A stretch of 64,000 nucleotides of DNA from Eledone cirrhosa (Eukaryota). How positions within the stretch are numbered: the stretch's first letter is position 1; each line of letters opens with the position of its first letter. The stretch lies in NCBI GenBank assembly GCA_964016885.1, contig OZ024741.1, positions 271,560,001-271,624,000 of the forward strand. Direction: 5' to 3'. The notes under the pieces were generated by a model. The model saw nothing but the letters and a program-made list of their open reading frames with translations. It did no database searches and was not told the origin of the DNA. Positions 1 to 6,037 of this stretch are shown one piece after another. The translations under genes and the position numbers were made by a program.

Positions 1-121
1 ACCGTGTTACCTACACGGCCACATTACAGCGTGGACTGTGTGTTTTTTTTGTCATGACACCTACACGACCTCATTTGTTTTGGACTGGATGTTGTGGTAC
101 CAACATAACTTTACATTGAAA

Positions 122-160
122 GGGGTGGTGTGGATGGGGTGGGGGTGGTGAGACGGGGGT
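122..160 (+). other. G-rich tract (potential G-quadruplex) antisense to the LINE 3'UTR
   Basis: ggggtggtgtggatggggtgggggtggtgagacggggg has four runs of 4 or more G. It is mirrored by the C-rich tract at ~5690-5728 in copy B. Confidence 0.5.
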
Positions 161-208
161 GTATTTTGTTAGAGGTGCCTACTGAGTGTAGTAGGTTTCA
201 CTTTGTAC

Positions 209-1555
209 TTAGGTAAGGCGGGTCTTCTGTATTACTGTGTAGCGCCAAAGATCTCGGTCCAGTGACATTGTCTTGGAGAGGTGTAAGTGTGTGAGGTCGG
301 AATTTATCAAGTCGTGGCTACCGTCTATTTTTATTGCCCTGCACTTTTTTTATACAGCTGTCGTCTTTCATGCGCATCACGTGACCATACCAACGTAGTC
401 TTCTATTGAGTAAACAACATCTGATCCCTCTTATTTCTAATTTTTCCCTTAGTTTGTTTATGCTTTGCCGTTCACGTATATTACTCTTACACATCCAGTG
501 GAGCATGCAAGCTTCGTTCCTCTCCAGTCTGCGTATATCCTCTGCACACAATGCCCAGGTCTCACTACCATGTAACATTGCTGTTCGTATGCAGGCATCA
601 TACAGCCTGCCTTTCATTTTTTGAGAGAACCCTTTAGCGGCTAATAGAGGTATAAACTCTCTGAACTTTTTCCATCCAGTTCTGACTCTAGCTACTGTAC
701 TTTCAGAGCACCCTCCACCATTGCTGATTTTGTCACCCAAGTAACGGAAGGTGTCCACTATTTCTATAGAACCATCTGTGTAATGGAATGAGCTAGTATT
801 TTGTGGGCACTTGCTGCTACTTATTGCACCAGAGCACCGGCCACATATAAAATCTATGTTCTTAGTTAGCTTACCTGTGATCCCACTACATCTTTTATGC
901 ACCCATACTTTGCATTTGGGACATAAAATGGAGTTTCTACCTACTCCTTTCCTACACACTGAGCATGGCCATTTCCCGGATGGGACCGGTGCCCTATTTT
1001 CCTTCCTACAAACTAGAACTTTAGTCTTAGACAGGTTAATTTTAAGGCCTTTTGATTCTAGGCCATGCTTCCATGTTTGGAATTTCTTCTCTAGTTCGGC
1101 CATTGATTCAGCTATGAGCATTAGATCATCTGCGTATAGGAGTTTCCATGGGTAGCCGGTCTTGAACTCCACTGGTATAGCCTGAAGGGCAATAATAAAT
1201 AGTAGGGGGCTAAGAACGGAGCCCTGATGAACACCAACTTTTACGCTAAACTCTTCACTATATTCGTTGTTAATTCTAACCTTGCTGACTGTTTCTTTAT
1301 ACATGGCTTGTATAGCTCTCACAAGCCATTCATCAACACCTAGTTTTCTAAGAGCCCACCAGATAATGGAACGGGGGACTCTGTCAAAGGCTTTCTCCAA
1401 GTCGACAAAACTAAGTATAGGGTTTACTTTTAGCTAGGTACTTCTCCTGTAGTTGCCGTACAATGAAAAGAGCGTCTGTGGTACTTTTACCTGACACAAA
1501 CCCGAACTGCATTTCATCTAGATCAATTCGCTCTCTGATTAGTTGCGCTATTACT
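209..1555 (-). pseudogene. Disrupted RT-PHD ORF of LINE copy A
   Basis: Contains QGSVLSPLLF, YADD and the C4HC3 finger (834-965). Relative to copy B it has two 1-bp deletions near 1410-1423, a +1 A insertion near 345-351 and a 30-bp deletion at 312/313. The ancestral TAA is at 209-211. The track's 318..1400 ORF is the fragment between these lesions. Confidence 0.9.
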
Positions 1556-2444: not shown

Positions 2445-2451
2445 CATACAT
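2409..2451. repeat. (TA)n/(TACA)n microsatellite
   Basis: Read directly from the sequence. Confidence 0.95.
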
Positions 2452-2791
2452 GGGCATACATGGCTTAGTGGTTAGAGCCCTTGCAATCGAAAGGTTGTGA
2501 GTTCAATTCTCAGACCGAGTGGTGTGTTGTTTCCTTGAGCAAGACACTTTATTTCACATTTCTCCAGTTTACTCAGCTGTAGAAATGAGATGATAGGGAC
2601 TGGGGTCCCTATCATTCCACTGCAAAGTGGTCGTGGACGTGCCACGGCAAAAAAGCACCCAGCACTCACTGTAAATGAGGTTGGTGTTAGGAAGGGCATC
2701 CAGCTGTAGAAATCAAGCCAGAATCAGTTCACGTCCCACCCTTGCAAGCAGGGAAAAGCGGACGTAAAATGATGATGATGATGATGATGAT
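2452..2791 (+). mobile_element. Apparently full-length tRNA-derived SINE with CORE-like body and RTE-related 3' end
   Basis: Pol III A box tggcttagtgg (2461-71) and B box gttcaattc (2501-09) in a T-arm. CORE-like gtgttgtttccttgagcaagacacttta follows. The 3' part (2617-2791) is homologous to the LINE 3'UTR and ends in a (GAT)7 tail. Flanked by TA-rich microsatellite on both sides. Confidence 0.85.
2461..2512 (+). promoter_or_regulatory. Internal RNA polymerase III type 2 promoter (A and B boxes) of the SINE
   Basis: TGGCTTAGTGG matches TRGCNNARYGG and GTTCAATTC matches GTTCRANNC, with tRNA-like spacing. Confidence 0.75.
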
Positions 2792-2996: not shown

Positions 2997-3059
<63 letters not shown>

Positions 3060-3061
3060 TA
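2997..3061. repeat. (TA)n microsatellite, about 30 units
   Basis: Read directly from the sequence; immediately precedes the 5' truncation point of LINE copy B. Confidence 0.95.
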
Positions 3062-3062
3062 C

Positions 3063-5642
3063 GGCTACGACGAAATCCATGGAGGCTATGGGTTTGGTAC
3101 TAGAAATGAGGAAGGCTCCAGAATCCTGGAATTCTGTGATGCAAATAACCTAACTATCTGTAACACTAACTTCAAAAAACGTGACAATCACCTGATCACC
3201 TATAGATCCGGGGAACACACAAGCCAGGTAGATTATATCCTTACCAGAAGACGTGACAGAGTGTCTGTTGTTAACACTAAATCCCTCCCCCATGAAGAAT
3301 GCACCTCCCAACATAGACTGATAATTAGCGACCTCATAGTCAGGACGAGACGTACTCGACAACAGAAGAGGACTATCCTCAGGAGGAAAATATGGAAGTT
3401 AAAGGACCCCACAGCCAGGAATAAATTTCAAAGCATATTACTTGATGCTTTCGACAGTAAGGAAGAACATTTAGAGTCGGACAATATAGAGGGAGAGTGG
3501 GAATTTCTGAAAGCAAACCTGCTGTTGGCGACAGACGAGGTCTGTGGCTGGAGCAGGCCTGTAGGCAGGAGGAGAGTAACATGGTGGTGGAACAGTAAGG
3601 TGGAGGGGTCAATTAAGGCCAAAAAGCAGGCTTGGAAAGTATGGCGGGATGGGGGAAGTAGAGAGGACTATCAAGTGGCCAGGAGGGAAGCTAGGAGACA
3701 AGTGTACTTAGCAAGAAGGGAAGCTGAGGAAAGAAAGTTCAAGCATGTTCTACAACGCGATGACCAAAAACGTGAGGTGTTCAGGATTGCTAGGCAATGC
3801 GTCAAGGAAAACCGTGATATTGTCGGGGAGAAGTGTGTACTAAACGACGATGGCACACTTGCCATCACCGACGCTGATAAGAAGGTAGCTTGGAAGTGTC
3901 ACTATGAAAGACTTCTAAATGAGGAGAATAATTGGGAGAAAGGCAGTCTCCCCCATATCGACCCAATAGAGGGACCAGCAGTGTTAGTCGAGGGGAGTAT
4001 AATAAGTAAGGCAATCAAGGATATGAAGACTGGTAAGGCGGCTGGGCCTTCGGAAATAGTTGCTGAGATGCTGAAGGCATCTGGCATGGTGGGACACACC
4101 ATGGTCACCCGCATAGTTAACCAAGTCGTACAAAACGGGGTTGTTCCGAAGGACTGGCATAGCAGCATCATCGTTAACTGTTATAAGGGTAAAGGAGACG
4201 CCCTAGATAGGAGTAACTATAGAGGCATTAAATTAATCGACCAGGTCATGAAGGTCACGGAAAGAGTAATAGCGCAACTAATCAGAGAGAGAATTGACCT
4301 AGATGAAATGCAGTTCGGGTTTGTGTCAGGCAAAAGTACCACAGACGCTCTTTTCATAGTACGACAACTACAAGAGAAGTACCTAGCTAAAGGTAAACCC
4401 CTCTACTTAGCTTTTGTCGACTTGGAGAAAGCCTTCGACAGAGTCCCCCGCTCCATTATCTGGTGGGCTCTTAGAAAACTAGGCGTTGACGAATGGCTTG
4501 TGAGGGCTATACAAGCCATGTATAAAGAAACAGTCAGCAAGGTTAGAATTAACAACGAATATAGTGAAGAGTTTAGCGTAAAAGTCGGCGTCCATCAGGG
4601 CTCTGTTCTCAGTCCACTACTATTTATTATTGCCCTTCAGGCCATAACAGAGGAGTTCAAGACAGGCTGCCCATGGGAACTCCTATACGCAGACGACCTG
4701 ACACTCATAGCGGAATCAATGGCCGAGCTAGAGAAGAAATTCCAAACATGGAAGCACGGCCTAGAGTCAAAAGGACTTAAAATTAACCTGGCTAAGACCA
4801 AAGTACTAGTTTGTAGGAAAGAAAACAAGGCGGCGGTCCCTTCTGGGAAATGGTCGTGCTCGGTGTGTAGGAAAGGCGTAGGTAGAAACTCCATTTTATG
4901 TCCTAAATGCAAAGTATGGGTGCATAAAAGATGTAGTGGGATCACAGGTAGGCTAACTAAGAACATAGATTTTACATGTGGCCGGTGCTCTGGTGCAATA
5001 AGTAGCAGCAAGTGCCCACAAACTACTAGCTCTTTCAATTGCGCAGAGGGTTCTATAGAAATAGTGGACAGCTTCCGTTACCTGGGCGATAAAATCAGCA
5101 GTGGGGGAGGGTGCTCTGAAAGTACTGTAGCTAGAGTCAGAACTGGTTGGAAAAAGTTCAGAGAGCTTATACCACTATTAGCTGCTAAAGGGTTCTCACT
5201 AAAAATGAAAGGCAGGTTGTACGATGCCTGCATACGAACAGCAATGCTGCATGGCAGTGAGACCTGGGCATTGTGTGCAGAGGATATACGCAGACTAGAG
5301 AGGAACGAAGCTTGCATGCTCCGCTGGATGTGTAACAGTAATATACGTGAACGGCAAAGCATAAACGAACTAAGGAATAAATTAGAGATAAGAGGGATCA
5401 GATGTTGTTTACTCGAGAGAAGGCTACGTTGGTATGGACACGTGATGCGCATGAAAGTCGATAGCTGTATAACAAAGTGCAGGGCAATAAAGATAGACGG
5501 TAGTCACGGAATAGGCAGACCTAGAAAAACCTGGGACGAGCTGATAAACTCCGACATCACACACTTACACCTCTCCAAGACAATGTCACTGGACCGAGAC
5601 CTTTGGCGGTACTCAGTAACAGAGAAGACCCGCCTTACCTAA
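3063..5642 (+). CDS. Partial (N-truncated) LINE ORF: C-terminal half of APE endonuclease, reverse transcriptase with inserted PHD finger, RTE C-terminal region; 859 codons without a stop
   Basis: The frame is open 66 codons upstream of the track's GTG start: GYDEIHGGYGFGTRNEEGSRILEFCDANNLTICNTNFKKRDNHLITYRSGEHTSQVDYIL...TSQHRL (APE). RT motifs are NYRGIKL, QFGF, FVDLEKAFDRV, GVHQGSVLSPLLF, YADD (4686-4697) and FRYLG. There is no genuine start codon. Confidence 0.9.
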   Translation, partial: GYDEIHGGYGFGTRNEEGSRILEFCDANNLTICNTNFKKRDNHLITYRSGEHTSQVDYILTRRRDRVSVVNTKSLPHEECTSQHRLIISDLIVRTRRTRQQKRTILRRKIWKLKDPTARNKFQSILLDAFDSKEEHLESDNIEGEWEFLKANLLLATDEVCGWSRPVGRRRVTWWWNSKVEGSIKAKKQAWKVWRDGGSREDYQVARREARRQVYLARREAEERKFKHVLQRDDQKREVFRIARQCVKENRDIVGEKCVLNDDGTLAITDADKKVAWKCHYERLLNEENNWEKGSLPHIDPIEGPAVLVEGSIISKAIKDMKTGKAAGPSEIVAEMLKASGMVGHTMVTRIVNQVVQNGVVPKDWHSSIIVNCYKGKGDALDRSNYRGIKLIDQVMKVTERVIAQLIRERIDLDEMQFGFVSGKSTTDALFIVRQLQEKYLAKGKPLYLAFVDLEKAFDRVPRSIIWWALRKLGVDEWLVRAIQAMYKETVSKVRINNEYSEEFSVKVGVHQGSVLSPLLFIIALQAITEEFKTGCPWELLYADDLTLIAESMAELEKKFQTWKHGLESKGLKINLAKTKVLVCRKENKAAVPSGKWSCSVCRKGVGRNSILCPKCKVWVHKRCSGITGRLTKNIDFTCGRCSGAISSSKCPQTTSSFNCAEGSIEIVDSFRYLGDKISSGGGCSESTVARVRTGWKKFRELIPLLAAKGFSLKMKGRLYDACIRTAMLHGSETWALCAEDIRRLERNEACMLRWMCNSNIRERQSINELRNKLEIRGIRCCLLERRLRWYGHVMRMKVDSCITKCRAIKIDGSHGIGRPRKTWDELINSDITHLHLSKTMSLDRDLWRYSVTEKTRLT
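4857..4988 (+). other. C4HC3 PHD-type zinc finger coding segment inside the RT
   Basis: CSVC-x10-CPKC-x4-H-x2-C-x14-CGRC with the typical W-V-H motif. All 8 ligands are conserved in copy A. Confidence 0.85.
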
Positions 5643-5780
5643 ATATATAGTAAAACCTACTCCAGCCAGTAGGCATCTCTAACAAATACACCCCGTCCCA
5701 CCACCCCCACCCGATCCACACCACCCCGTTCTATGTAAAGTTATGTTGGTGCCGCGCCATCGAGGCCGAAACAAATGAGA

Positions 5781-6010
5781 TCGTGTAGGTGTCACGACAA
5801 AAAAACACACAGTCCACGCTGTAATGTGGCCGTGTAGGCAACACGGTAAAAACCTCCCAGACCCACACTGTAAATGTGGTTGGTGTTAGGAAGGGCATCC
5901 AACTGTAGAAAACCTGCCAGACAGTCCTATGCGAGCAAGACAATCACTCTTGCCTCAAGTGGGACTACCCCCGTCCAAACCCATGCAAGCGTGGAACACG
6001 GACGTTAAAC
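5781..6010 (+). other. Structured LINE 3'UTR: two H-type pseudoknots alternating with CTGTAA(A)-loop hairpins, a GGTTGG..GGAAGGGCATCC stem and a terminal stem-loop
   Basis: Pairings were read by eye. Compensatory changes are seen against the SINE at 2617-2767. Confidence 0.65.
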
Positions 6011-6037
6011 GCTGATGATGATGATGATGATGATAGT

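Follow-up and report, generated by a model that had tools for sequence, protein, structure and literature searches.

A PHD finger between reverse transcriptase motifs 6 and 7 in a clade of RTE LINEs, with a hypothetical role in targeting

The element in the window and its PHD finger

The DNA analysed here (the window) was a stretch of 64,000 nucleotides from Eledone cirrhosa (GenBank assembly GCA_964016885.1, contig OZ024741.1, positions 271,560,001 to 271,624,000 of the forward strand). It carries a young copy of a long interspersed nuclear element (LINE) of the RTE type, the reverse transcriptase (RT) of which holds a PHD finger between its motifs 6 and 7. The features of this copy, and of a second, older copy of the same family, were as follows (window coordinates):

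3061–6034, plus strand: RTE LINE copy, young and 5′-truncated (start at about 3061), 99.8 % identical to the longer copy L031, with (TA)n ahead of it and a (TGA)7 tail at its end.
3054–5642, plus strand: open frame of 862 aa, comprising the C-terminal part of the APE endonuclease, the RT (Pfam RVT_1, aa 386–586), the PHD finger, the thumb and the C-terminal region.
4686–4697, plus strand: catalytic YADD of the RT (motif 5, aa 545–548).
4773–4808, plus strand: RT motif 6, GLKINLAKTKVL (aa 574–585).
4842–4856, plus strand: conserved lead-in to the finger, including W600, the aromatic residue two residues ahead of Cys1 (Y/W/F/H in 203/219 relatives).
4857–4988, plus strand: PHD finger (C4HC3, aa 602–645) in the motif 6–7 interval, with F640 as core aromatic and an invariant-like W622, which stands two residues ahead of the His ligand.
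5073–5087, plus strand: RT motif 7, FRYLG (aa 674–678).
5643–6034, plus strand: 3′ untranslated region (3′ UTR) and (TGA)7 tail; a nearby element resembling a short interspersed nuclear element (SINE) shares its 3′ part.
1–1555, minus strand: second, older copy of the family with a frame at 318–1433, 89.9 % identical in DNA to the copy at 3061–6034.
834–965, minus strand: finger (PHD) of the older copy, with every ligand present.

Positions 4857–4988 encode a genuine PHD finger. The Pfam PHD family PF00628 matched it at 26 bits (cut-off 24, E 9.5e-6) and matched the finger of the second copy at 26.5 bits; scores ranged from 26 to 31.8 bits across the scored fingers. An identity as a C1 or RING domain was rejected, both Pfam families falling under their cut-offs and the leading fold matches being PHDs. 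An AF2 model of the isolated finger had a mean pLDDT of 74.8. Foldseek gave nothing at E 0.001 with this model, its top rows nonetheless being PHD fingers, and in a wider fold search (VIA-align) the TAF3, Pygo and BPTF PHDs ranked first with Z 5.3–5.7 (TAF3: Z 5.7, root-mean-square deviation 4.2, 60 residues aligned; Pygo: Z 5.4, 3.0, 53 residues). In a model of the full protein (pLDDT 87, pTM 0.83), confidence was high for the finger and for the RT where it resumes, and the linkers flanking the finger were flexible. At the core aromatic, which lies two residues ahead of the seventh Cys position, 219/219 fingers had Phe or Tyr and none had Trp, the residue of the canonical PHD signature (PMC2927781).

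An earlier reading, made from the sequence alone (the sequence-only reading), had described a complete C4HC3 finger at 4857–4988 of an RTE LINE, with all ligands kept in the diverged second copy, and had looked to structure prediction for a PHD fold. The coordinates proved exact, the Pfam and fold matches agreed with it, and the single APE–RT frame, its RVT_1 match and the short-repeat tail bore out the RTE context.

The finger is under purifying selection between the two copies in the window, which differ at 5 of 32 synonymous and 3 of 115 non-synonymous sites; the RT differs at 25/87 and 6/309 sites, respectively, and the ratio for the finger is close to that for the RT. The residue just before Cys1 (4854–4856) is Ser in the youngest subfamily, and Pro in 214/219 relatives and in the older window copy.

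Conservation, lineage and genomic copies

A protein search with the finger region returned 442 relatives. In the best 120 of these 442, all eight ligands were present in 119–120, as the sequence-only reading had anticipated for the family. A search with the RT core only, which does not favour the finger, returned 1189 relatives; among the best 120 of these 1189, the strict finger pattern was found in 105, spacing variants in seven and broken or cut fingers in five, three were left unparsed, and none had a short linker. Of 150 more distant cluster representatives, 12 carried the finger in a linker of 87–93 aa and 69, many of them copies of one family, had a linker of 22–30 aa; 61 were unparsed, one had a part-deleted finger, and seven were without motif 7. 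The motif 6–7 linker of human L1 is similarly short. The statement that non-LTR (long terminal repeat) RTs normally have a short linker at this place agrees with the 22–30 aa of the finger-less RTEs versus 87–93 aa here. The finger was, in its first half, as conserved as the RT core (0.72 each), against 0.35–0.39 for the flanking linkers.

A tree was computed with the linker removed from 28 finger-bearing and 23 finger-less hand-picked rows, all unnamed database proteins. Presence of the finger required one state change, against a mean of 17 after shuffling, and the finger branch had an SH-aLRT value of 89; on this tree, the simplest reading is that the finger was gained once. The tree had no named RTE references, and its finger-less neighbours are presumed to be RTEs on their architecture. 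Named hosts among the matches listed were Octopus, Hydractinia, the catfish Neoarius, Branchiostoma and the nematode Acanthocheilonema, and the closest named relative among them was a protein of Octopus bimaculoides (64 % over the finger region). In the ESM Atlas, RVT_1 occurs together with PHD in clusters from Mollusca, Cnidaria, Nematomorpha and Nematoda, which have very few members. Seventy-nine metagenome loci, on short and often broken contigs that were left out of the target-site counts, gave 21 intact fingers and one short linker; another 21 were unrelated sequence or had a finger that was broken or cut, and 36 were unparsed. A finger-bearing RTE protein (P0137) is deposited under a metagenome-assembled genome of the bacterial symbiont Candidatus Thiodiazotropha and is probably host DNA contamination.

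A first look at the E. cirrhosa genome (3.0 Gb) gave 66,841 candidates, and all 150 copies that were scored matched the 120-aa query with 100 % identity; the family is therefore young and very abundant. An assembly chimera or a single-copy accident is ruled out by these abundant copies and by the conserved database relatives. Among 20 long copies fetched, most had a single frame of 1133–1147 codons (1076 aa from the Met taken as start) that combines APE, RT and PHD in one protein. One such protein, P0122, matched Exo_endo_phos and RVT_1, and the full model of the long protein matched L1 ORF2p (64–1076 to 6–1060). A (TGA)4–9 tail was present in 90/90 copies examined. Rfam, run on one long copy, gave no ribozyme, with only below-threshold, microsatellite-driven miRNA matches. 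The 5′ end of long copies (for example L031 1–1707) is a tandem array of 450-bp units, similar to the monomer promoters of mouse L1.

Two further RTE families were seen in the same genome. One (L356–L381) is finger-bearing, with about 68 % DNA identity and the same ligands and cage residues. The other (L202–L241) is young and finger-less; its frames are about 1160–1300 codons long and have three C2H2-like motifs at the C-terminus, its tail is (CAT)2–3, and it resembles the described RTE-2_OV architecture.

The SINE-like element of the window (about 2450–2790, plus strand) matches the 3′ UTR of the finger family at 77–85 % in its 3′ part, ends in a (TGA)n-type tail and has many genome copies; ARAGORN found no tRNA gene in it, and its head, read by eye, appears tRNA-derived. 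Two interleaved inverted repeat pairs (1632–1880 with 2026–2274, 249 nt; 1924–2025 with 2310–2411, 102 nt; 97 % complementary) and a 55-nt hairpin at 2804–2919 are possibly small non-autonomous elements in opposite orientations. A 52-bp satellite (6343–63502, about 1100 copies, 93 % matches) occupies the remainder of the window.

Insertion sites, finger surface and a possible role in targeting

Local insertion sites: A TA tract followed the tail directly in 48/90 copies (background 4.8 %) and lay ahead of the element in 31/61. The finger-less RTE family, with 40 copies of which five had no recognisable end, served as control; it showed a TA tract under the strict definition in 12/35 copies, and it also lands in TA or GTAT tracts. 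Purine–pyrimidine alternation was found at 55/90 sites of the finger family and 28/35 of the finger-less RTE, against 6 % of background. The finger is ruled out as the cause of (TA)n targeting, since the finger-less RTE has the same preference. RTE insertion signatures are already known (PMC6007223). Target-site duplications were mostly unresolvable within the TA tracts.

Regional CpG content: Both families and tandem repeats were masked, the observed/expected ratio of CpG (CpG o/e) was taken over flanks of 10 kb, and values below 0.5 were called low. Flanks were fetched for 40 finger-family copies, 40 background regions and 20 finger-less control copies, and 37, 35 and 19 of these were used. 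Low values were obtained for 25/37 finger-family flanks, compared with 8/35 of background (Fisher p 1.7e-4) and 1/19 of the finger-less RTE (p 9e-6). With other repeats masked too, the CpG-poor flanks numbered 22/27, 9/30 and 2/13, and in GC-poor regions only 22/27, 8/22 and 1/7, respectively. The contrast went along with a TpG/CpA excess (1.30 versus 1.20), with GpC unchanged. When long copies were compared with long copies, 7/12 versus 5/33 were CpG-poor (p 0.007). The same lean was seen for the SINE-like element that shares the 3′ end (15/27 flanks, of 29 loci) and for other finger-bearing copies, mostly of the second family (8/13, of 30 loci), each against 11/35 of background. The copies are only about 0.2 % diverged, so the CpG depletion of their flanks is not caused by the copies themselves; the depleted flanks likely mark methylated gene bodies. 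No promoter signal was found in the form of CpG-island-like flanks, which occurred at 0/45 copies and in 5.2 % of background windows.

Position within the RT: P0001 (aa 388–585) aligned with R2Bm 461–666, and by this alignment the finger occupies the same sequence interval as loop 6a of R2. In R2Bm, insertion 6a (residues 672–677, between motifs 6 and 7) reads an upstream target motif, is required for nicking and has been called a feature of R2 only (PMC10499050); the R2 proteins of birds and turtles additionally use it as a wedge in upstream DNA (PMC12180492). The sequence-only reading had rightly placed the finger inside the RT, and had overlooked that the insert shares the interval of this target-DNA-binding loop. 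The origin of the finger is likely independent of 6a. Another suggestion is that the finger binds the RNA of the element itself, for 3′ UTR recognition or template handling. A basic surface, and the lack of C-terminal zinc fingers in these elements while the finger-less family has C2H2 fingers there, would suit such a role; the homologous interval, however, faces target DNA in three R2 structures (PMC10499050, PMC12180492) and RNA binding leaves the regional bias unexplained, and we consider it the least probable of the explanations weighed here.

Surface of the finger: Residues were counted in 219 parsed fingers. Trp stood two residues before the His ligand in 216/219 and an aromatic residue two before Cys1 in 203/219; Ser or Ala lay three before Cys3 in 210/219, and Ile or Val two before Cys3 in 209/219. 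The net charge was positive in 218/219, with a median of +7, and zero or one acid was found within the eight residues before Cys1 in 181/219, that is, no acidic cluster. The Pygopus PHD was among the closest solved sequences, behind two Jade-1 constructs. In the alignment with Pygo2, the Trp of the finger falls on the pocket-dividing Trp and its Ile/Val on the T3-channel Ile; the loop that bears the pocket-lip Asp in Pygo2 is shortened here, and the Asp is missing (Pygo2 positions as defined in PMC2927781).

Readers of H3K4me3 have an invariant cage Trp and one to three further aromatics, and an acidic Arg2 pocket is usual in them, although not universal (PMC3241642). The finger has the cage Trp and the second aromatic, with Ser/Ala as third wall, and is without the Arg2-pocket acid. 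Readers of H3K4me0 are marked by an acidic cluster before Cys1, which is absent, and the cage Trp is present. By the criteria of PMC3241642, the residues describe a putative partial methyl-lysine cage that lacks the customary Arg2 acid, and they speak against a reader of unmodified K4. A predicted complex of the finger with the unmodified H3 tail of the host (32 aa) scored 0.00, no alignment being used and the method being unproven on peptides, and thus speaks neither for nor against binding. The cage and the basic surface are both under selection, which suits joint contact with a nucleosome.

The strong positive charge, the missing histone-reader acids and the interval shared with 6a would also suit a plain basic clamp that stands in for 6a and keeps hold of the target DNA or the duplex of the cDNA during nicking and priming; the finger would then read no histone mark and the bias would have another cause. 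Two precedents exist: the BAZ1A PHD uses two lysines for DNA and ignores histone peptides (PMC5636791), and the cross-brace finger of piggyBac is DNA-binding (PMC5861402). The BAZ1A PHD is without a cage, however, unlike the finger here. Such a clamp leaves unexplained the CpG-poor bias, which is absent in the finger-less RTE, and the local sequence preference is alike with and without the finger. This explanation is unlikely, yet a serious one.

A canonical H3K4me3 reader that directs insertions to promoters, in the manner of the RAG2 or TAF3 fingers, would account for the nearest folds, which are those of H3K4me3 readers, and for the retained cage Trp; RAG2 and Pygo read K4me without the Arg2-pocket acid (PMC3241642). 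The flanks are CpG-depleted rather than CpG-rich and include no CpG-island-like case, the third cage wall is Ser/Ala, and acids are absent, all of which makes such a reader very improbable. Loss of promoter insertions by selection could mask targeting of this type.

The same regional bias would be expected if the finger tethered the element to a protein of the host that belongs to elongating or methylated chromatin, or to a methylated non-histone protein, instead of contacting the nucleosome directly, and the Pygo and MLL1 PHDs do have non-histone partners (PMC3241642). Against this stand the retention of the finger in hosts from cnidarian to nematode and fish, and the strongly basic surface, which fits nucleic acid better; we consider this tether improbable.

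The reading that we prefer, with about an even chance of being correct, is that the finger contacts target chromatin during insertion, with its basic residues lying on DNA and a methyl-lysine held in its partial cage, and thereby biases new copies to methylated gene-body chromatin. In such a mechanism, the finger would face the upstream target DNA, as does R2's 6a from the same interval, and its Lys/Arg surface would grip the DNA backbone. The partial aromatic cage, formed according to the Pygo2 alignment by Trp, the N-terminal aromatic and a small Ser/Ala wall, may accept a methyl-lysine; the mark would more likely be of the gene-body type, for example H3K36me or H3K4me1/2, than promoter H3K4me3. 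H3K36me3 is associated with gene bodies. Two yeast PHDs bind this mark (PMC3241642). The CpG-poor flanks would represent methylated gene bodies, as reported in Octopus bimaculoides, and within (TA)n-like repeats the local site of nicking would be picked by parts common to finger-less RTEs.

Several points weigh against targeting by the finger. An acid directly after Cys3, the position taken here as that of the Arg2-pocket acid of H3-tail readers, was found in only 6/219 fingers, and the Cys2–Cys3 loop was without an acid in 201/219. All fold Z-scores are below 8, and a common fold alone says nothing on function; the equivalence of finger and 6a is one of sequence interval; and the support of the finger branch (89) is under the star level of the tool. 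As to the regional bias, 12/37 finger-family copies sit in CpG-normal DNA, the comparison of long copies was borderline by rank test (p 0.056), and the leans of the SINE-like element and of the second family were non-significant by Fisher test (p 0.07 and 0.10), 17/30 loci of the latter having been dropped for short flanks. Flanks of up to 600 nt had shown no CpG difference (median 0.52 vs 0.59, p 0.28), a result superseded by the 10-kb test. The single finger-less control family differs also in its endonuclease and its C-terminal C2H2 fingers, and one such family cannot suffice to assign the regional bias to the finger; a like contrast could arise from the timing of expression or from purifying selection once copies have inserted.

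The proposal of the sequence-only reading that the finger tethers the element to chromatin thus stands in part: the conserved cage aromatics and the CpG-depleted bias, absent in the finger-less RTE, speak for it indirectly, and a canonical H3K4me3 or H3K4me0 tail reader is disfavoured. A broader version, possible but doubtful, is that of a pan-animal LINE lineage that carries an epigenetic reader in the RT palm, at a DNA-facing loop, and reads a gene-body mark together with nucleosomal DNA; it would have placed tens of thousands of copies in active genes and would provide gene writers of the non-LTR kind with a portable targeting module of natural origin.

Comparison with known systems

The finger-bearing elements are a real and new clade-wide variant of RTE LINEs; their targeting role is put forward as a hypothesis. 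No prior description of a PHD inside a LINE RT was found in the accessible literature, covered mostly at the level of titles and abstracts, with Repbase, Dfam and most subscription papers outside this scope; the words 'PHD' and 'zinc' are absent from the main texts of PMC2887409 and PMC10294476. Automatic Pfam annotation already places RVT_1 with PHD on many relatives. Target choice of dispersed LINEs is usually credited to the endonuclease; here, a folded, putative reader lies in the RT and is absent from sister lineages. A whole domain is tolerated at the motif 6–7 loop, which had been described as R2-specific; this is relevant to the engineering of non-LTR gene writers. The bias, provided that it is real, would help to account for the shaping of gene introns by this family in a 3-Gb genome.

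Finger-less RTEs (lepidopteran, PMC2887409; octopus RTE-2_OV with a C2H2 finger, PMC9115989) share the single APE–RT frame, the short-repeat 3′ tail, 5′ truncation and microsatellite-like sites, with 30–48 % identity in the RT core; they differ in the motif 6–7 linker, which in the elements studied here is extended and holds the PHD, and for neither of the two is a PHD mentioned in the passages covered. An active RTE of O. bimaculoides is also given in PMC9115989, without domain detail in the part seen.

R2 6a (R2Bm, PMC10499050; R2Tg and PlaMe, PMC12180492) is likewise an insertion between motifs 6 and 7, and touches upstream target DNA through basic residues. It is a short loop in a site-specific element with an RLE nuclease, whereas the insertion here is a folded zinc finger of 44 residues in a dispersed APE element.

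The Pygopus PHD agrees with the finger in the aligned pocket-dividing Trp, T3-channel Ile and aromatic before Cys1, and some relatives carry a precomputed match to PF27108, a Pfam family of Pygo type. Only on the Pygo side is there an acidic pocket-lip loop (EVND, D339), and the finger here is basic.

PHDs borne by LINEs are known from CR1/L2 elements, where Pygo PHD structures are frequent top matches and a general targeting to the host's genome has been proposed (PMC4120745). Those PHDs lie in ORF1 or at the N-terminus of a polyprotein, in another superfamily, and the structure of ORF2 is termed highly constrained in the same work; here, the finger splits the RT palm.

The chromodomain of chromoviruses offers a parallel in which a chromatin reader fused to a transposition enzyme biases integration (bioRxiv 10.64898/2026.05.21.726589). 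The enzyme there is an LTR integrase and the target is heterochromatin, in contrast to the non-LTR RT and the CpG-depleted, probably genic bias described here.

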